This document shows positions 14,232 through 23,722 of a stretch of 64,000 nt of DNA, piece after piece; within the stretch, counting starts at the first letter, position 1, and the number at the start of each line of letters is the position of its first letter. Source of the stretch: Escherichia phage ESCO13. The notes under the pieces are model-generated. The model saw nothing but the letters and a program-made list of their open reading frames with translations. It did not search any database and was not told the origin of the DNA. The position numbers were made by a program, and so were the translations under genes. Location of the stretch: the sequence record NC_047770.1; one strand, 5' to 3'.

Positions 14232-14858
14232 ATGGGAATCCCTTTTGACTTAAAACTTGGGCCAAACAACGACCTCATCATGGATGATGGGGATTTGGTC
14301 CTCACTACAACCAGAACAGAAATTGCAGCACAAACTCTTGGGATAACTCTGAACACGTATCGTGGGGAGTGGTTTTTAAATACTAACTTCGGTGTTCCTT
14401 ACTTACAAGAGATTATTGGTGTTGCTAGAAAGAAAGATATTGTAGACAGAATATTTTTAGCAGAGATTGCCAAAAACGTTTACATAGATACAATAAACAG
14501 TTATAAATCTGCTTATGACATGGATCAACGTTATTACTCAATGACAGTTATGGTCACAGTTGGAGCAGATACAGTAACATCTATATTCAATACTCAACCT
14601 TCTGAAGAGTTTATTTACCCTGAAGCTGGTGAAGACAATGCAGCGATCACTTGTGAAGCTTACAGTATTGTTGAGAATTCGAATAGACTTTATCGCTTTA
14701 TCAACTTTGTTGGTTTGCCACGTGATACCTACTCTACTTGGTGGAATGAATGGTCTACAGAGTCAGCAGTGGAAAGAATCATGGTTAACGAAAAAGGTGA
14801 TGCATTAGCTACAAACAATAATTTCGGTATAACAGCTATGACAGGAGTAGAAGAGTAA
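14232..14858 (+). CDS. Baseplate wedge protein, gp25/GPW/XkdS-like
   Basis: N-terminal DLVLTTTRTEIAAQTLGITLNTYRGEWFLNTNFGVPYLQ resembles the gp25/W-family core; follows the spike gene. Confidence 0.45.
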   Translation: MGIPFDLKLGPNNDLIMDDGDLVLTTTRTEIAAQTLGITLNTYRGEWFLNTNFGVPYLQEIIGVARKKDIVDRIFLAEIAKNVYIDTINSYKSAYDMDQRYYSMTVMVTVGADTVTSIFNTQPSEEFIYPEAGEDNAAITCEAYSIVENSNRLYRFINFVGLPRDTYSTWWNEWSTESAVERIMVNEKGDALATNNNFGITAMTGVEE

Positions 14859-15331
14859 TGGCAGATTTAACTACGATCAAAGTTTCTGATCTTACACAAA
14901 CAACCTCTGTGTCTGATACAGATTTCTTTGTAACAGATCAGGCTGGAATAACAAAGAAAACTTCTTTGAAAGTGCTGTTGAGTGGTGCAGGGGTAACTAG
15001 AAACCGTCTGAATGCACGGGGAACAGTAACTAGCACCCTGGCATTAGATATTAGTTCGGCAGAATATTTTTCAGCAACTTTATCTTCTGCAACGTGCACA
15101 ATTAGTTTTACTAATATTCCAGTAGCAACAAATGCAGTTTTAAACTTTACTTTAGCTTTGCGTCAAGGAAGTGGTGCAAATAAAGTCGTATGGCCTTCTT
15201 CTGTAAAATGGAGTTTTGGTCGTTCCCCAGTTTTGAGTTATCGTCAAGGTGCAACAGACACTTTTGAGTTTATCAGTTATGATAATGGAGCAACTTGGAC
15301 AGGTAGCTTAGTTTTAGCAGGAGTTATTTAA
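14858..15331 (+). CDS. Hypothetical baseplate protein
   Basis: 157 aa; start overlaps upstream stop. Confidence 0.4.
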   Translation: MADLTTIKVSDLTQTTSVSDTDFFVTDQAGITKKTSLKVLLSGAGVTRNRLNARGTVTSTLALDISSAEYFSATLSSATCTISFTNIPVATNAVLNFTLALRQGSGANKVVWPSSVKWSFGRSPVLSYRQGATDTFEFISYDNGATWTGSLVLAGVI

Positions 15332-18207
15332 TGTCAAGAGTTAAGCACAATATTGACAACACGTTTCAGTTGATTGAAGGGTTGGTTCAGTTTTTGGAAA
15401 GAAATACTGGGCTTACCATAGATCCTACGGTTCAGCATTACATTATCAACCCACAAAACGTATTGGCGAACAACAGACACTTTATTAACTGGACAGCGCA
15501 GGAAGGGCAACCAAACGGTGACGCTACTACCGAAGGTCAATCTGTGCTTATCACTGGTTTTGCTTATGCATATTTGGCTACAGGGGATAAAAAATATCTT
15601 GAATCTGCCGAGAAGTATTGGCAAGCCTATATAGATCACTTCTTCGGGGGCCAACCTATTCCTGATCCTCCGGCTAAGTATCGTCCCAACTGGATCATCA
15701 ATGGTAAAGAACCACGTTTAGCACATTACCCTCTCACAGATGATGGGTATCCTACGCACGGTGGGTTCAAAGGTAGCATGATGACTTGGATTAACGGAAG
15801 GACTGTTATTCCTAAAGGTGCACCGCATTGGGGAGAATACTTAGATAAAGCTTGGTTTGCTTTCAATGGTAATCTTGGTTGGAACTCCGTTAACGCAACA
15901 GTTTATGCAACTAACCCAGATGGTTCAACTAACTGGAAAGAATATGGAGATCAGTGGGACGTTGAATGGATTATAGATCGTCTAGGACGTAAAGTTGATT
16001 GGGATGGTAACATTTTATCTACAGGGCACAGCTTCGCAGAATATGGAACAGTGCAACTTAAAAATGCTTCTGTGAACGGTGATTATAAATTCAACTACGC
16101 TACATGCAACCCTGTAGAACACGGTGGATATCTGCTTAAGCGTAATGAGATGTGGCATAACCGTCCTGTAAACGTTCCGGTAGAGTTAGGCTATCAAGAT
16201 AATGCTTCCGATGCTGAAACGTGGTGGTGTGATGCAAACTACTTGATGTATCAGATCACAGGAGAGAGAAAATACTGGCTTTGCTGGCAATCTTCTTTAT
16301 TGTTGTGTCAAGACTACTCAAACATCGATATGTTTGATAAATTCTTCCGTAGATCTACGACAGCAATAATTCCTTTTACAGATGGTATCTCGTATGATTA
16401 CTCATACCCATCTACAGCAATACCTAAATATTCTCGTGACGAATTAGGATATACAGTAATTCGCCAAGATGTTTCAGCACAAACAACTCTAGAACAACAG
16501 GCAGTTTGGTTCAGAGTGGATCAGAATTCAAAACTGCGTATTGAGTTTCAAGGTGTAGATGATGCAGGGGAAGGTGTTCTTTTCCGTCCAGAGTTAGAAT
16601 TAAGCAAGACTAAGAGTGAAACAGACACAGTGACATATCGTTGTGGCTTACCTCTTGGTGCAGCTAATATGACTAAGATGGATATACCTTTATCTAGTTT
16701 TATGCGCACCGAACCTCCTGGAGGTGGTGTATATATTATTGCTGAACCTAGAATCATTGTTGACTGGGGAAGCAATACTGTGATACAATATAAATATGCA
16801 ACTGGTATTGCTGGGACAAATAGTGATCAGATAGTTTCTGCTAATATGGATTCAGATGGTGGTTTTACTATTGGATTTTGGTTAACACCAACTAAAACAG
16901 CCAATTTAAAATCTATTACCTATCGTTCATACGCAGATGATTTTAACATCACTATTACGGATTCCGCAGGTTGGAGATGGTGGGCCATGTTAGAAAAAAC
17001 AAATTCTGCATGGGTTACTAAAGCTTTAAGTCCTGCTGATTTCAAATTAAGCACTTGGCAACCTAATCACAATGACACAGAGACAAAACCTTCGTCAATA
17101 AACCTGACTGCTGTTGATCAGATCAACATTGCATTGGATTCTGAACCTGCAAATGGCTTGACAGGGGCAATCGACTTTTATTGCGTTAACGATATCCCAT
17201 CTTTGTATTCTTCAGCCGCTGGTGATGATTACACAATGTATTTCAGGGTTACAGTTTCATCTGAAAATCCTTATACAGCAAAACTTGGAGATTGTACAAT
17301 ACTGGACTACAAACTTGACAGTTTGAATTATACTCCAGGAATCATTCCATTTTCCAATATTAGTGATCCTAACACAGCATTATATGACGGTTGGCGTGGT
17401 ATTCCTTACCCAGGTTATCAATACCCATCCTTATATTGTTTTAAAGGGAGAGATATTGACTGGGTTCGTATGAACAACAGTATAGACTTTTTATATGATT
17501 CACAAATGTGGTTTTATAATAAGTTTGCCCCTGTGATGCCTGGGCCAATGGCACAAGCTTATGTTTGGGATCGTTGGGATGCTCATAAATACGGAAACAA
17601 GAATGAGTTCACAATGTATCATTGGAACGATAAAGCTTGGGATGGTTATGAAGCACGAGCATTCTTCTGTGCATGTCATACAGTATACGAACTGAAACAA
17701 CGAGGAGCAGAAGTTCCTGCAAAACTTTTAACAGTTTGTAAAAACTGGATCAACTATCTGAAATGGTTCCAAGATAACAACGAAGGAAGAACACCAACAA
17801 TATTTTATCCCAATGGAGAAGTGGCTGCGCCTGTAGATGACTTTACAAGTCACATGTCTGCGCTCTTTATGGCGGGATGTGCTATAATGGGGATGGCTGG
17901 ATATGATTCAGAAATTCCTAACATTAGAATAGTAGCAGACCGCTGTTTTGAACTTATTCAGGAAAACTATATTGTTCTTGGTCCTAATCACGTCATGAAT
18001 GGTTGTTGGAGTGCCGCTCCTAGACCAGACAGTGATAACGGAGTCTTCTTTGGCTTCCACGCTGGAGAGTTGTTACGTGGTTTTGGGTTGTATGCTTTAT
18101 ACAAAAAACTTAATCCCCAAAATGCATTACCTGTTTTGGATTCGAGCAATATTCCTGCACTTACTGTTTTGACAATGGCAAACATTAGTGTGGACGTTAC
18201 CGAGTAA
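15331..18207 (+). CDS. Large tail/baseplate protein with a possible carbohydrate-active N-terminal domain
   Basis: 958 aa; N-terminal segment (ITGFAYAYLATGDKKYLESAEKYWQAYIDHFF) is reminiscent of alpha/alpha-toroid glycosidase/lyase folds; speculative. Confidence 0.35.
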   Translation: MSRVKHNIDNTFQLIEGLVQFLERNTGLTIDPTVQHYIINPQNVLANNRHFINWTAQEGQPNGDATTEGQSVLITGFAYAYLATGDKKYLESAEKYWQAYIDHFFGGQPIPDPPAKYRPNWIINGKEPRLAHYPLTDDGYPTHGGFKGSMMTWINGRTVIPKGAPHWGEYLDKAWFAFNGNLGWNSVNATVYATNPDGSTNWKEYGDQWDVEWIIDRLGRKVDWDGNILSTGHSFAEYGTVQLKNASVNGDYKFNYATCNPVEHGGYLLKRNEMWHNRPVNVPVELGYQDNASDAETWWCDANYLMYQITGERKYWLCWQSSLLLCQDYSNIDMFDKFFRRSTTAIIPFTDGISYDYSYPSTAIPKYSRDELGYTVIRQDVSAQTTLEQQAVWFRVDQNSKLRIEFQGVDDAGEGVLFRPELELSKTKSETDTVTYRCGLPLGAANMTKMDIPLSSFMRTEPPGGGVYIIAEPRIIVDWGSNTVIQYKYATGIAGTNSDQIVSANMDSDGGFTIGFWLTPTKTANLKSITYRSYADDFNITITDSAGWRWWAMLEKTNSAWVTKALSPADFKLSTWQPNHNDTETKPSSINLTAVDQINIALDSEPANGLTGAIDFYCVNDIPSLYSSAAGDDYTMYFRVTVSSENPYTAKLGDCTILDYKLDSLNYTPGIIPFSNISDPNTALYDGWRGIPYPGYQYPSLYCFKGRDIDWVRMNNSIDFLYDSQMWFYNKFAPVMPGPMAQAYVWDRWDAHKYGNKNEFTMYHWNDKAWDGYEARAFFCACHTVYELKQRGAEVPAKLLTVCKNWINYLKWFQDNNEGRTPTIFYPNGEVAAPVDDFTSHMSALFMAGCAIMGMAGYDSEIPNIRIVADRCFELIQENYIVLGPNHVMNGCWSAAPRPDSDNGVFFGFHAGELLRGFGLYALYKKLNPQNALPVLDSSNIPALTVLTMANISVDVTE

Positions 18208-18215
18208 GGGGTAAA

Positions 18216-20279
18216 ATGAAACAAGCTATATTTACTGTCACGCGAGACAAGAGAGTAAATGCGAGTTCATTTAACTACACGACTGTTGACGGAACAGCAG
18301 TCGCTGGTAGAGATTATATAGCAAAATCGGGAACACTTGTGTTCCCTGATGATGCTGATTCTGCTACCATTGTGGTTGAAGTATTTGAACGACCAAAGAA
18401 CTCAATAGATCTTAACTTCTCCCTCCAAGTTTCAGGGATTAGTCAAAATAACATGATGGTTGAAACGACCATCAATTGTATTATAACTACTATCCAAGAA
18501 AACACTACTCCAATAACTTGGACTACAAAAGACGTTAAAATGTTCTCTCCTATGTATTGGACAATAGACTCTCAAGCAACGGAAAGTTGTTCTATTGTAT
18601 CTCATGGAGACTCTTTTACTGCAAGATTTGTAAACAGAACAGCAGCAGGTTTGGCAGGGGTTATCTGGAGCACAGTTGACAAATATGATCACAAAGGTGT
18701 TGGGTATTTACCCCACACAGATTTAAGTTCAGAGAAACTTTGGTTTAAAATGGAAATTAGTCAAAACATGCCAGGTTTTAAAGAAGAACCTTTGGTGCCG
18801 ACTTTGACTGTAACTCTCCTGGATAAAAGTGTTCATTATGTCAGTTTAGGATTCTACGCTTCAGATATTTCAGAAGATGGTAAAACAGCCACAATCAAGT
18901 TAGATTTTGGTAATATCTTTTCTGGCCCTAATAATGATATTCCTTTGGATATGAGTGCTGTAGATAATATTTTCTTCTCTTTGATTACAGCAAGGTATGA
19001 AGAAATAGAAGAGATTGTACCTATTGCCAGTCAAGAGGCTTGGTTTACTTTCACTCTTCTTGAACCTACTTCTGGTTACAGTATGATGAAAGTCAGCAAC
19101 CTTGTCCAGCCTGAACATGATATTCGCATGTGCACATCTTATGATGATATGTATAACCTGACTCCAGAGAGAGTTATTTATAATACGTATGCACTAGGTT
19201 ATCGTGGAATGATTAACCATTACAACGGAATGTCTCACTATTATGAGTTCTCATGGAACGGAACATCTTGGGCTTTAAATAGATCTGTTTTCCTGAATCC
19301 GGCTACAGAAGCTTGGCTTAACAGTTTCCATTCTATAGCTAATGAAAATGGCTACACAATAATGAACTCTTTGAGTTTTGAGTTGATGAGCACAGTTTGT
19401 CCTGTAGAATGGGTTCAACATGATTGGAACGATGCTCTTGCAGCAACAGGTTATGAGCCGCCTAGTTATGTGTTATCTCCAACAATTGATGAAGGTATGG
19501 AATATTTGCAAAATGTTATTAACAAAATAGCATCTATTTCTCAAGCTAACAATATTCCAGTCGTCATTCAAATTGGTGAACCTTGGTGGTGGTATAATAC
19601 AGCAAGTAAAATGCCTTGTATATATGATTACACTACCAAACTAGCATTCAATACAGAAACAGGCTTATTTGCACAAGATGCAGGAACAATAGATAATTAT
19701 AAAACAGGAACACCGTTTGACGAATACTATGCATTTTTGTCTCGTAAACTAGGATTAAGAGTTACAAAGTTTGCAACAGACACTAGAGCAACTTATCCAG
19801 GAGCTAAAGTAACATTGCTTCCGTTCTTACCGTCAATTATTGGCAACGGTTTGATGGAGAAAGTTAACTTTCCGTCTGATTACTACATTCCTGAAGCTTT
19901 TGATTTTTACTGTTCAGAGTGTTACGACTGGCTTCTGGAAGGTAAAATGATGAAAGCATTTGATGCAATTACCATACCACATGAAAAATTAGGTTTTGAA
20001 TATTCTGATATTCACTATCTTTCAGGTTTTGTTCCAGATGCTACTCTTGCACCTTTGTATGGCTTCGATCCTGAATCAAACTACCGCACGTATCTTTGGA
20101 AAATGATTATAGGTAATATAGTGTTGAACGCCAATAAGTTCAATGGACTTACACAATATATATGGGCCTATCCTCAAATAATGCACGATTCCATCACGGT
20201 AGTTAATTCTCAATCCCAAGTTTTCTATATGGGTAACGTGCCTTTGAACGTTTATTTACAGGATACAGTATATGCCTAA
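18216..20279 (+). CDS. Tail fibre/adhesin-like protein with N-terminal Calx-beta domain
   Basis: 687 aa; RVNASSFNYTTVDGTAVAGRDYIAKSGTLVFPDDADSATIVVEVF matches the Calx-beta motif (T.DGTA.AG.DY...G.L.F). Confidence 0.45.
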   Translation: MKQAIFTVTRDKRVNASSFNYTTVDGTAVAGRDYIAKSGTLVFPDDADSATIVVEVFERPKNSIDLNFSLQVSGISQNNMMVETTINCIITTIQENTTPITWTTKDVKMFSPMYWTIDSQATESCSIVSHGDSFTARFVNRTAAGLAGVIWSTVDKYDHKGVGYLPHTDLSSEKLWFKMEISQNMPGFKEEPLVPTLTVTLLDKSVHYVSLGFYASDISEDGKTATIKLDFGNIFSGPNNDIPLDMSAVDNIFFSLITARYEEIEEIVPIASQEAWFTFTLLEPTSGYSMMKVSNLVQPEHDIRMCTSYDDMYNLTPERVIYNTYALGYRGMINHYNGMSHYYEFSWNGTSWALNRSVFLNPATEAWLNSFHSIANENGYTIMNSLSFELMSTVCPVEWVQHDWNDALAATGYEPPSYVLSPTIDEGMEYLQNVINKIASISQANNIPVVIQIGEPWWWYNTASKMPCIYDYTTKLAFNTETGLFAQDAGTIDNYKTGTPFDEYYAFLSRKLGLRVTKFATDTRATYPGAKVTLLPFLPSIIGNGLMEKVNFPSDYYIPEAFDFYCSECYDWLLEGKMMKAFDAITIPHEKLGFEYSDIHYLSGFVPDATLAPLYGFDPESNYRTYLWKMIIGNIVLNANKFNGLTQYIWAYPQIMHDSITVVNSQSQVFYMGNVPLNVYLQDTVYA

Positions 20280-20532
20280 AGAAAGTGGTTTTAAAAAATT
20301 TATTCGCGGAATGTTCTGCACTTACCCTGGCAACGGGGTAAGCTCTACAAAAGTCTGGAACGCTGTAGGCATGTCTGTTATGACAGGCATGTTTATCTTT
20401 TTAGGAATAGAAAAAGAAATTCCTGAATGGATGGGTTGGGCTTTTGTTTTCATGATAACTCCTTCTCGCCTCATGAAAAATCTTATTGATTTACGCTGGG
20501 GCAGATCACAATCTACCAAAGAGGATGACTAA
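20272..20532 (+). CDS. Small membrane protein (two predicted TM helices, charged C-terminus)
   Basis: 86 aa; hydrophobic segments VWNAVGMSVMTGMFIFLGI and WMGWAFVFMI; C-terminal RWGRSQSTKEDD; holin-like architecture but inside the tail module. Confidence 0.35.
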   Translation: MPKESGFKKFIRGMFCTYPGNGVSSTKVWNAVGMSVMTGMFIFLGIEKEIPEWMGWAFVFMITPSRLMKNLIDLRWGRSQSTKEDD

Positions 20533-22019
20533 TGGATGAATATGGTTTGACAGATGCGGGATTTGTAATCCCGACTTTTGACGATGTTCTAAACAACTAT
20601 ATGACAGCAGTAAAAAACACATTTGGTGCAGATGCAGCCACTTCGGAAGATACTGTGATCGGACAACTGTTTAGAATAATTGCATACACAGATTACACAT
20701 TGTGGGAAGGTATGCAAGGTGTTTATAATACTCAAACACTAGATGGTGCAGAAGGTATTTATCTTGATGAAATCTTTTCTAAACGCGGTTTCTATCGAGC
20801 AGGGGCAGCAGCAAGTACAGGTTATGCCTATGTTAAGAGTAATAACAAAGCAGCTTGGACTTATGAGTTAGGCACGGATATTTACTTCAACTCTGATAGT
20901 GATATGAACTACTATGTTAGCACACCAACTATGTTGAATGCTAAGATTGCAGCTTATCAAATCTCTCGTGCTAATGCAACTGCTACAGGTGTTCCAAATA
21001 TTACTTTTTATGCACAAAGTGCGGTGGATGGAGGACTAAACAGTAAAACACTTGCACCTGGTTCTTCTACATTTATAACCGATCTTGAAACTTTTATCAA
21101 GGCGAATTTAACAGAAGCTGATCGTAGTCTTGTATTTTCTGATTCAGGTAACTTATCAATTGGTTTTACTTCTTTAACCAGTGATACTCCAGTGGGGCTG
21201 GTAACTCCTATTAAATTTTATGCTAGTGTTCCGGTTGGAACCAAGTGGAGTGAGATTCCGGTAGTTGCAGCAGAGAAAGGATACAATCCTGTTGGTGTGG
21301 AGTCTATTACAGGGATATCTTCTACCTTTACAGGTTATCTTGATAGTGGTAACTTCTATTCATTTTCCCCTGGTCGAGATGTTGAGACAGACGCAGAATT
21401 CCGCTCTCGTTTCAATGACAACGTTGACGAAGCTAACGCAGGGACACGAGCAGCTATTGTGAAAGCTCTGCTACTTACAGATGGTGTTACTAAGGTGAAG
21501 ATTTATGATAACCCTACATTACATGATCAAGAACATGCTCCAGCTATGACTTTCCAGACTATAGTTTATGGTGGCAGTGCAGAAGAAATTGCAAATGTTA
21601 TCTATAAAACCAAACCAATCAACACTTTGACACACGGAACAACAAACATAACAGTTACAACAGAAGATGGAGGACAAGAAATTATTCGCTTCTCTCCTGG
21701 TGCTTCTGTTATGTATTCCGTAAAACTTGTTTATCAAACTGTCAACGGAACAACTTTAAGTGGAACAGAAAAACAAAACATCGTAGAAGCTTTACAAAAC
21801 CTGCAAGCTTACTTTGAGTTAGGTTCTTCAGTAACGAACGATCAAATCAAAGGTGTTATTTATGCAGCACTTGCTTTTGGACGCTTGACTTCTCTTCGTG
21901 TTTATGTTAAACTTAATACTGAGGATGACAGTAAATATACAGAGAATAATATAGTTCCTGCTTATAATGTTGTCCCTTCTTTTGACCTTGATAACATTTC
22001 TTACGAGTATGGAGTGTAA
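20532..22019 (+). CDS. Baseplate J-like protein
   Basis: 495 aa; N-terminal region (LDGAEGIYLDEIFSKRGFYRAGAAASTGYAYV) matches the Baseplate_J pattern; position in the baseplate block. Confidence 0.55.
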   Translation: MDEYGLTDAGFVIPTFDDVLNNYMTAVKNTFGADAATSEDTVIGQLFRIIAYTDYTLWEGMQGVYNTQTLDGAEGIYLDEIFSKRGFYRAGAAASTGYAYVKSNNKAAWTYELGTDIYFNSDSDMNYYVSTPTMLNAKIAAYQISRANATATGVPNITFYAQSAVDGGLNSKTLAPGSSTFITDLETFIKANLTEADRSLVFSDSGNLSIGFTSLTSDTPVGLVTPIKFYASVPVGTKWSEIPVVAAEKGYNPVGVESITGISSTFTGYLDSGNFYSFSPGRDVETDAEFRSRFNDNVDEANAGTRAAIVKALLLTDGVTKVKIYDNPTLHDQEHAPAMTFQTIVYGGSAEEIANVIYKTKPINTLTHGTTNITVTTEDGGQEIIRFSPGASVMYSVKLVYQTVNGTTLSGTEKQNIVEALQNLQAYFELGSSVTNDQIKGVIYAALAFGRLTSLRVYVKLNTEDDSKYTENNIVPAYNVVPSFDLDNISYEYGV

Positions 22020-22021
22020 AA

Positions 22022-22651
22022 ATGGCAGTGAGTGTTGACCATGTAACAACTTGGGCCAGTATCAATGAAGATGTTAAAAACCTTCTGATTGAAGATTTTA
22101 AATCTTCTCCTAACATTGTCAAGCTCCTCTACATCGTATCCAGTGAAAAGCAAAAGATAGATCAGGCAATGATCTATCTTGCTAAACACCGCTTGATCTC
22201 TACAGCCACAGGCAAATACCTAGATATTCTAGGGGAAGAAATGGGGATCGAACGTAATGGCTCTGATGATGAAGAGTATAGAACAATATTAAAAATCAGG
22301 GCTTACCGCGTAGCCTCATCGGGGACTCGTGGTGACATAATTGATATCTTCGCCCGTTTCACAGGAACAGAGCGTGAAACGCTTAATACTTACGTAGGTT
22401 TGAATAAAACCTTTGATGTGTTTTTCTACAACCTGTGTCTTCAATCTGATCAAGCTTTAGAGCAGTTGCTAAGTGTTTTCCCTATTATTAGTAGCTACCG
22501 TCTTGGAGCAAAAGCAGGATCAGCTTTTGGTTTTAGTTCTTATTATGCTACCAAACCGCCTCATGGTATTGGTGGTTTAGGTTCCCTGTACATGGAATCT
22601 ACTGGGGATGAAACAGGACGCATGTGTACGCTTCTCAAGCAAATAGATTAA
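22022..22651 (+). CDS. Baseplate protein, gpI/XkdU-like position
   Basis: 209 aa immediately downstream of the J-like gene. Confidence 0.35.
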   Translation: MAVSVDHVTTWASINEDVKNLLIEDFKSSPNIVKLLYIVSSEKQKIDQAMIYLAKHRLISTATGKYLDILGEEMGIERNGSDDEEYRTILKIRAYRVASSGTRGDIIDIFARFTGTERETLNTYVGLNKTFDVFFYNLCLQSDQALEQLLSVFPIISSYRLGAKAGSAFGFSSYYATKPPHGIGGLGSLYMESTGDETGRMCTLLKQID

Positions 22652-22660
22652 GGAGTTTAA

Positions 22661-23722
22661 ATGGCGAAGCCAATATATTATCCTGACTGGGCTACACAAA
22701 CTGTAACGCTCCCAGGAACTTTAAACACAAACAAAATTAGACCTAAAGAAACCATCCGCACAGTTGGTATGGATTATGGTCAAATCATGACTTGCGAAGA
22801 AATGAACTGGATTCTTAATAATATCGGTTTATGGATTCGCTATTTGGTGGATGACTTTCTTCCAACTTTACCTAATACCTACTTGCCTTTAGTGGGAACT
22901 AAGATTACAATGGCAGGTGATGCTACTGGTGAGGCTACTTGGAACGGTAACAAAGAAGTTACTTTATCTATCCAGGTTCAAGATAACAGTCATAATCACT
23001 TGTCGGCAAACATTACGGATGCCACTAGTTCAACAGTAACACCAAACGTGTTGGTAAAACGTGATGCGGGTGGTGCTATTTATGGTGGTGATGTTTATGT
23101 TAACGGTACTTCCACAACAGATCCTGCAACACTGTTCTTCAAAAACTTTGCAGGACAAACAAATGGTGAGATTTCTGCCGAGTATCAAAGCGGAGGTCAG
23201 CTTTACATCTATCGTAGAAATCCTAGCACAGGCAGTGTATCGGCAGGTGTTCGTTTATATGATGCAGGTTATGTTCTAATAGATAATCCAAGATCAAACA
23301 GTGGACAAGACACTTCTAACGGAAATGCTTTAGTTCGTTTAGATTATCTGAACTCTCGTTTGACTTCCCTTCAGAACACATTGCAGACGAATATTAACAC
23401 TGTTCAAAACAACTTGAATAATGTTAACAACAACCTCTCTTCTCGTATAAACAATGTAGAAAGTAATCATCAAAGTCAGATTACAAATAACTACAACTAT
23501 GCTAACGGAACCTTTGTAAGAGATATTCGTTATACTAGCCAAGGTGTGTATTATCCACCAGGGAACGAGGTTTCTTGGACTTATATCTGTTCTTCTGGTT
23601 ATGTTCTTTCTGGTATTATCGTACAGGAAACAGGACGTAGCTCTGCGGATAACATCGGTGGGGTTTACTTCAAACGCCTCCAGCGCAACGTTAACGGAAA
23701 CTGGTACGATATTGGAGGCTAA
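22661..23722 (+). CDS. Tail fibre protein
   Basis: 353 aa; Asn/Gln-rich heptad segment (LNSRLTSLQNTLQTNINTVQNNLNNVNNNLSSRINNVE) typical of fibre shafts. Confidence 0.45.
   Translation: MAKPIYYPDWATQTVTLPGTLNTNKIRPKETIRTVGMDYGQIMTCEEMNWILNNIGLWIRYLVDDFLPTLPNTYLPLVGTKITMAGDATGEATWNGNKEVTLSIQVQDNSHNHLSANITDATSSTVTPNVLVKRDAGGAIYGGDVYVNGTSTTDPATLFFKNFAGQTNGEISAEYQSGGQLYIYRRNPSTGSVSAGVRLYDAGYVLIDNPRSNSGQDTSNGNALVRLDYLNSRLTSLQNTLQTNINTVQNNLNNVNNNLSSRINNVESNHQSQITNNYNYANGTFVRDIRYTSQGVYYPPGNEVSWTYICSSGYVLSGIIVQETGRSSADNIGGVYFKRLQRNVNGNWYDIGG

Follow-up and report, generated by a model that had tools for sequence, protein, structure and literature searches.

The window analysed here is a stretch of 64,000 nucleotides from Escherichia phage ESCO13 (NC_047770.1). 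At 18216..20279 on its + strand lies an open reading frame (ORF) for a tail protein of 687 amino acids (aa), which consists of an N-terminal Calx-beta domain, an NCTSP_N beta-sandwich and a TIM barrel resembling those of glycoside hydrolases (GH). The Calx-beta domain lacks its first strand, and a peptide resembling that strand is found at the C-terminus of the protein encoded directly upstream. Based on this arrangement, we suggest that the Calx-beta domain may be a calcium-independent docking module, which would be completed in trans by the upstream tail and would anchor a glycan-targeting receptor-binding protein; in our judgment the arguments for and against this suggestion are evenly balanced. 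In fact, the Calx-beta finding itself is routine, and the protein belongs to a known type of receptor-binding protein. The Calx-beta call is already present in Pfam-based annotation, and one GenBank record is titled “Calx-beta domain protein”. It is the truncated domain together with the upstream tail that looks like a defined docking joint. Such a split-domain joint appears to be new, since no description of one was found, and a search of the literature on Calx-beta in phage tail proteins returned nothing relevant.

A Calx-beta domain without strand A

The Calx-beta domain occupies residues 1–95 (18216..18500, + strand). Its presence at the N-terminus of a 687-aa tail protein had been proposed by a sequence-only reading of this DNA, and both the profile search and the predicted fold recover it. 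The Pfam family PF03160 (Calx-beta) matches with 42.3 bits against a gathering threshold of 27 (E 8.6e-11), and precomputed matches to the same family exist for the ortholog clusters P0001–P0009. In the full-length AlphaFold2 (AF2) model of the protein (pLDDT, the predicted local distance difference test score, 93.8; pTM, the predicted template modelling score, 0.90), the beta-sandwich can be superposed on the known Calx-beta structures, namely CBD1 of the Na+/Ca2+ exchanger and the Calx-beta domain of integrin beta4. The tail-protein context is likewise borne out, by PHROG matches and by the baseplate and fibre genes in the neighbourhood.

The domain is incomplete at its beginning. The Pfam match sets in at residue 4 of the 687-aa protein and at profile position 24, and the six strands of the AF2 model (residues 2–10, 17–25, 38–43, 49–56, 66–73 and 85–90) are strands B to G. 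That is, strand A, which corresponds to profile positions 1–23, is absent, and the domain opens exactly at strand B. The same truncation is shared by every phage ortholog, with Met1 aligned to profile position 24–25. The domain is also the fastest-evolving part of the protein, with 33–40% identity in distant orthologs versus 55–70% for the barrel, which fits lineage-specific docking better than it fits a conserved ligand site. Its constant location at the extreme N-terminus and its portability between enzyme bodies, as well as its rapid evolution, are consistent with a docking role. An exhaustive search of residues 1–106 against 1.84 billion representative proteins was dominated by giant multi-repeat Calx-beta proteins, and it was uninformative on single N-terminal modules.

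The calcium site

Could the domain be a calcium-dependent adhesion or sensor module, as CBD1 of the Na+/Ca2+ exchanger is? Calcium-dependent adhesion had been part of the sequence-only reading, and both the sequence and the fold do match the Ca2+-binding CBD1 domains. In the HMMER alignment, the acidic cluster VGIIDDDIFEEDENF of NCX1 CBD1 is replaced by VEVFERPKNSIDLNF in the 687-aa protein. The ligand columns were then tabulated for nine phage orthologs aligned with 17 bacterial tandem Calx-beta repeats, with what we take to be the NCX1 ligand set in the numbering of the NCX1 literature (E385, D421, D446, D447, E451, E454 and D498–500). The position of D421 holds an invariant D in the phages (D33 in the 687-aa protein) and is acidic in all 17 bacterial repeats, while that of D446 is acidic in 6/9 phage orthologs (E58 in the 687-aa protein) and 12/17 repeats. 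At the next three positions no phage ortholog is acidic (0/9 each): R, K or H is found in place of D447, S or T in place of E451, and L, I, V or R in place of E454, whereas each of these positions is acidic in 14/17 bacterial repeats. The DND sequence that follows strand G in NCX1 is mostly T-x-Q/R/E in the phages, and the bacterial repeats are acidic in 12/17, 5/17 and 13/17 cases across its three positions. The remaining ligand, E385, belongs to the A–B loop and is absent because the chain begins past that loop.

Since the equivalents of D447, E451 and E454 are non-acidic and the ligand of the A–B loop is absent, the canonical calcium site is not predicted. The Calx-beta domain of integrin beta4 is a precedent for a calcium-independent member of the family. 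What speaks for calcium binding, besides the general match, is the invariant D33, the mostly acidic position of E58 and a further position, 95, which is acidic in 8/9 orthologs. Against the three lost acidic positions and an A–B loop lying outside the polypeptide, we consider calcium-dependent adhesion or sensing very improbable. On the basis of these alignments, we advise against interpreting the Calx-beta domain here as a calcium sensor.

The tail of the upstream protein

In canonical bacterial arrays, a Calx-beta repeat reads LSISSNASVTEGG-TLSFTVTRSG. In the window, the upstream protein of 958 aa (15331..18207, + strand) terminates in LTVLTMANISVDVTE, and the Calx-beta protein opens with MKQAIFTVTRDK. 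The strand-A-like core of this tail, NISVDVTE (18181..18204, + strand), was delineated by hmmalign and by regular-expression counts. When it is joined to MKQAIFTVTR, the product aligns by hmmalign without gaps and colinearly with the canonical consensus SNASVTEGGTLSFTVTR, and the Pfam match on the joined sequence reaches profile position 14 instead of 24. The core is contained in a C-terminal extension of about 29 aa (QNALPVLDSSNIPALTVLTMANISVDVTE; 18118..18204, + strand), which is present in the window and in phi92.

The tail is inherited together with the Calx-beta gene. The pattern [ILV][STV]V[DNQ][ADV][ST], which was written post hoc from the seen data, occurs within the last 13 residues of the upstream protein at 10/10 Calx-beta-bearing loci examined, that is, the window, phi92, Av-05, HeinrichReichert and the six metagenomic loci L012–L016 and L020. 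It occurs at 0/13 NCTSP loci without Calx-beta, and its one occurrence in the 25,266 residues of window ORFs is the tail itself. For example, phi92 gp141 carries the same tail and ends in MNDISVDVTK, and PVP-SE1 gp50 and rV5 gp42, which are gp141-like proteins with no Calx-beta gene next to them, end about 29 residues earlier, in YRNLTR and YRGLYL, respectively. In Vequintavirus and Avunavirus, the Calx-beta gene comes after a small wedge protein, and it is the wedge protein that bears the tail, as can be seen from the C-termini YVDNISVDATE in Av-05 and CESITVNATRQEG in HeinrichReichert; the tail is absent from the window's own wedge protein. The two carriers, that is, the gp141-like protein and the wedge protein, are not homologous to one another.

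The tail is conserved at the level of amino acids. Between the window and Av-05, 5/7 conserved tail codons differ synonymously (for example, serine is encoded by AGT in one and TCT in the other), and therefore selection acts on the peptide. The spacing from the stop of the upstream ORF to the start of the Calx-beta ORF varies by lineage (8, 9, 12 and -1 nucleotides), as does the frame, which makes a translational fusion unlikely. Fusion of the two ORFs by read-through or frameshift was rejected on these grounds, and a second in-frame stop is present in the window.

It might be argued that the tail and the truncated domain do not interact today and are remnants of an old gene fission or of a recombination junction, with the six-stranded domain serving as a spacer. 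In favour of such a relic, AF2 gives a confident fold of the domain in the absence of strand A, and phage mosaics often have cassette boundaries within upstream genes. The tail also adds little to the profile score: in a test with a hidden Markov model of 48 bacterial Calx-beta repeats including strand A, it gained 1.7–3.8 bits and ranked marginally against 66 other window C-termini and 200 shuffles. A relic would hardly be expected, however, to keep its amino acids through synonymous changes while the Calx-beta domains have diverged to about 35–40% identity, to be retained on two non-homologous carriers, and to be absent wherever the partner gene is absent. We therefore regard this explanation as quite unlikely.

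Some side observations concern the origin of the extension. The tblastn alignment of the window with PVP-SE1 (18118–18180 of the window; L010:3757–3900) does not end at the stop codon of gp50 but continues in the same frame through the initial 17 codons of the gene that follows, which encodes a colanidase tailspike. The first half of the extension (NALPVLDSSNIPALT) is faintly like tailspike N-termini (MADLLPTVKVSDLPTAT). These features may be the trace of an in-frame fusion.

The probable glycan-binding body

The Calx-beta domain is followed by a linker of low conservation (residues 96–106, 18501..18533; pLDDT 77 for the block of residues 91–100), the NCTSP_N beta-sandwich (residues 107–292, 18534..19091) and the (beta/alpha)8 TIM barrel (residues 299–658, 19110..20189), all on the + strand. 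The sandwich matches PF23844 with 60.1 bits (E 2.1e-16) and the barrel, termed TIM-barrel_NCTSP, matches PF23845 with 266.7 bits (E 3.8e-79), the cut-off being 27 for each. The solved relatives are the non-contractile sheath subunits gp64 and gp65 of phage N4 (PMC13434306). The sandwich matches gp65 in both phmmer and Foldseek, and the Foldseek matches also include many glycosidases composed of a sandwich plus a TIM barrel. It should be noted that the name NCTSP does not describe the role of the protein here, because the phage, as a myovirus, has a gene for a contractile sheath of its own.

Across 38 aligned homologs, D310, D311, E389, E455 (within GEPWWW), E568, Y570 and W650 are invariant, and D571 is nearly so. 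The conserved carboxylates D310, D311, E389, E455, E568 and D571 are located at the C-terminal ends of the barrel strands, that is, at the usual active-site face. E455 resembles the acid/base site of strand 4, and the second conserved glutamate comes after strand 6 and not strand 7. The loop after barrel strand 2 contains the motif GMSHY (residues 338–342, 19227..19241, + strand), of which G338, M339 and S340 are invariant in the 38 homologs. A 2026 preprint reports this motif as diagnostic of the use of the N4 glycan receptor, and the phi92 gp142-type protein as the one that binds this receptor in myoviruses (bioRxiv 10.64898/2026.04.02.716166). The requirement for wecB and nfrB that Vequintavirinae, phi92-like phages and N4 have in common suggests that they use the N4 glycan receptor (PMC8669472). 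Because GMSHY is present and the literature ties it to this receptor, the barrel is the best candidate for recognising the glycan and possibly cleaving it, and by homology the target is most likely the N4 glycan receptor. Carbohydrate binding, which the sequence-only reading had offered for the Calx-beta domain beside calcium-dependent adhesion, is much more plausibly the work of the C-terminal barrel with its GMSHY motif and invariant residues; for the Calx-beta domain, a weak accessory role in glycan binding is possible.

On the basis of Phyre2, a “poly-GlcNAc deacetylase domain” has been attributed in common to N4 gp64 and the conserved lateral fibre of Vequintavirinae (PMC8594841). A deacetylase of the CE4 type was considered and rejected: the profile search of the 687-aa protein gave no CE4/NodB signal, and the barrel instead matches GH barrels in fold, among them the GH153 domain of PgaB/BpsB. 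Its match to this glycoside-hydrolase part of PgaB is the probable source of the label. In a comparison of PDB 9lc0 (chains I and M) with window residues 273–606 by phmmer, N4 gp65 matches the region of strands 1–2 only (FDD and GMSHY), and gp64 matches from barrel helix 2 to strand 7, with the equivalents of E389, GEPWWW and E-x-YDW. Therefore, the motifs of the single-chain barrel are divided between the two N4 sheath subunits.

The same module in Erwinia phages

A strand-A-less module is also found at the N-terminus of proteins with a quite different body. It precedes a GH48 enzyme in gp07 of the Erwinia N4-like podovirus phiEaP8 and in gp074 of the Erwinia Henunavirus pEp_SNUABM_01, and the two proteins are 55% identical over their whole length. 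In the Henunavirus, an additional stand-alone Calx-beta protein of 117 aa is encoded beside a fibre gene.

These contexts could be taken to mean that the domain is an accessory module, immunoglobulin (Ig)-like or similar to carbohydrate-binding modules, which binds surface glycans weakly for avidity, and that the upstream strand-A-like tail is unrelated. The module stands in three glycan-active settings, namely before the NCTSP barrel, before GH48 and beside a fibre gene; a beta-sandwich before a TIM barrel is usual in glycoside hydrolases; and the whole GH48 protein, Calx-beta included, is common to a podovirus and a myovirus. However, the module is in every case located at the extreme N-terminus and starts at the same profile position, and the Calx-beta domain is the least conserved of the protein. 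In addition, the co-travel of the tail is left unexplained. We consider this accessory glycan-binding explanation unlikely.

As a separate observation, the GH48 gene belongs to a two-gene cassette, in which an Ig-like plus GH5 cellulase protein is followed by the Calx-beta plus GH48 protein (L003:3804-8409 and L004:1323-6339). The cassette is common to an Erwinia N4-like podovirus and an Erwinia myovirus of Vequintavirinae. Its GH5 proteins differ in their N-terminal, virion-specific parts, and its GH48 proteins are colinear, which extends to the Calx-beta domain. The stand-alone 117-aa protein of the myovirus ends in VISISDAVLTTV, a motif with which the common part of the GH5 proteins also begins.

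The proposed docking joint

We now return to the docking module. According to this proposal, the 687-aa protein would be a baseplate-associated receptor-binding protein, in which the NCTSP_N sandwich and the GH-like barrel form the working part that binds a surface glycan. The protein encoded directly upstream would supply, with its tail NISVDVTE, the strand that the six-stranded Calx-beta sandwich lacks, and the resulting non-covalent strand-complementation joint would plug the receptor-binding protein onto its carrier. In Phapecoctavirus and Justusliebigvirus, this carrier would be the gp141-like fibre protein; in Vequintavirus and Avunavirus, it would be the small wedge protein.

Several points weigh against this proposal. 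The evidence for the joint, an incomplete sandwich and a partner-encoded strand of matching sequence and register, is at the level of sequence. AF2 models the six-stranded domain confidently alone, and it may be stable without the seventh strand. Adding the true tail raises the profile score by only 1.4 to 3.8 bits, marginally more than control C-termini do, and 5/66, 25/66, 3/66 and 2/66 controls do equally well. Because their tails share a common origin, the ten loci do not count as ten independent events. In the Erwinia phages, it is less obvious which strand would be the donor, and the C-termini immediately upstream give gains of 2.8–4.2 bits in the same test. As for the working part, it is in Vequintavirinae, N4 and phi92-like phages, not in Phapecoctavirus, that infection was shown to depend on wecB, nfrA and nfrB and so on the N4 glycan receptor, and cleavage by the barrel is a putative, possible activity. 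We also note that the 958-aa upstream protein has no match in Pfam, NCBIfam or the PDB sequences, and that it shows no similarity to the GH5 partner proteins of the Erwinia phages, with no shared “socket-bearing” domain found.

A broader proposal can be put forward, for which we find the balance to be slightly on the doubtful side. The Calx-beta fold may be split over two adjacent genes, with strand A at the C-terminus of the upstream protein and strands B to G on the receptor-binding protein, as a portable plug and socket that would have moved as a unit from the wedge protein to the gp141-like carrier. The same strand-A-less module would then be the one seen on the GH48 protein that is colinear in myoviruses and N4-like podoviruses, and the proximal fibre densities of phi92-like phages would be gp141 joined to gp142. 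In the 2026 cryo-electron microscopy study of phi92, gp141 and gp142 were not modelled, and the proximal parts of fibres I and II were left unassigned. If the docking joint exists, it would explain how the receptor-binding protein is attached in the group of rV5, phi92 and phAPEC8, would help to assign the densities left unmodelled in that study, and would give therapeutic phages a compact, portable interface through which receptor-binding proteins could be exchanged.

Genomic context

The 687-aa gene is located in a baseplate and fibre module whose gene order is that of phi92 gp140 to gp147. The 958-aa gene upstream is the ortholog of phi92 gp141, based on synteny and on a match to PHROG 2871 (“tail protein”). 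Downstream, an ORF for a predicted membrane protein of 86 aa (20272..20532, + strand), homologous to phi92 gp144 and matching PHROG 1322, starts within the end of the 687-aa gene, with an overlap of 8 nucleotides. This small protein is conserved amid baseplate and fibre genes. The gene for a Baseplate_J wedge protein, equivalent to phi92 gp145, is found farther downstream. The 687-aa protein is the ortholog of phi92 gp142 and rV5 gp34: its first 106 residues match phi92 gp142 directly by tblastn, and the phi92 record notes the similarity of gp142 to rV5 gp034. A promoter and terminator scan of 14500–23000 found nothing above the shuffled expectation, and the genes of this region look co-transcribed.

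The 7-kb region around the gene is 100% identical to that of Escherichia phage phAPEC8_ev052 (LR597654.1), and 97–99.9% identical to those of many other genomes of Phapecoctavirus, whose members are 150-kb myoviruses of Stephanstirmvirinae. The DNA identity over this region is 97.4% for OP562383, which is recorded as “Acinetobacter phage vB_AbaM_ABPW7”. Over the first 106 residues, the Calx-beta region, the “Campylobacter phage” records MG0656xx are no less identical than the records of phi92- and rV5-type coliphages. The Campylobacter and Acinetobacter host labels of these records, which match rV5-, phi92- or phAPEC8-type coliphages just as closely as coliphage records do, are probably wrong.

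Annotations of the family are diverse, including “capsid protein”, “phage capsid protein”, “capsid and scaffold”, “non-contractile tail sheath” and “hypothetical protein”, and the capsid label is also attached to hundreds of 623-aa copies in Acinetobacter prophages, which have no Calx-beta domain. The labels “non-contractile tail sheath”, “capsid protein” and “deacetylase” are misleading, the body being a glycoside-hydrolase-like barrel. In P0082–P0104, mainly from Pseudomonadota metagenome bins, NCTSP_N and the barrel are fused to a C-terminal DUF2460 (PF09343/TIGR02217), which we take to be a tail protein of gene-transfer-agent-like elements. These fusions represent the same glycan-binding body on a different anchor.

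Comparison with known systems

The closest known proteins are phi92 gp142, rV5 gp34 and the “lateral tail fiber with glycosidase and deacetylase domains” of the Vequintavirinae in the BASEL collection, which have the same three-domain layout, neighbourhood and GMSHY motif. The window protein is 76% identical to the phi92-type P0004, which was placed at phi92 gp142 by tblastn. The window form is short, with 687 aa, whereas phi92, phAPEC8 and others have an alternative C-terminus that is 30 aa longer and is followed by a tailspike gene. These longer relatives of 717–719 aa (L002:3717-8644, L005:3417-7993, L006:3417-7189 and L007:9001-13925; the window counterpart is 20190–20279) end in NCYLQDITLKQANVEIATISGITLATKSGEDLVTTQKFYI, and a variable tailspike gene, for an endosialidase or another protein, begins 8 nucleotides after. 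In many relatives, the tailspike gene is inserted ahead of the 86-aa membrane-protein gene, whereas in the window and in Schickermooser the form is short and a tailspike gene is lacking. The longer C-terminus may dock the tailspike, which would make the protein the arm of phi92 fibre I.

The sheath proteins gp65 and gp64 of phage N4 (PDB 9lc0 and 9yf4) are structurally similar to the NCTSP body of the window protein. However, they have no Calx-beta domain, and they form a heterodimeric sheath around the tail tube of a podovirus, whereas the window protein is a single chain on a myovirus baseplate. The barrel folds like those of PgaB/BpsB GH153 and of the clan GH-A type (GH42, GH5 and GH14), with an identity of only 7–12%.

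For the Calx-beta domain, CBD1 of NCX1/CALX has the same fold and belongs to the same Pfam family, but in the window domain most of the acidic Ca2+ cluster is replaced, and strand A and the A–B loop are missing. The Calx-beta domain of integrin beta4 (PDB 3fq4) is an equally good structural match; it is complete, with seven strands in one polypeptide, and works in a eukaryotic cytoplasmic setting. The mechanism proposed here would resemble the donor-strand complementation of chaperone-usher pili, where an Ig-like sandwich without an edge strand is completed by a neighbouring subunit. There is no homology between the two systems, and in the phage protein the missing strand is the N-terminal strand A and the putative donor is the C-terminal tail of the upstream protein.

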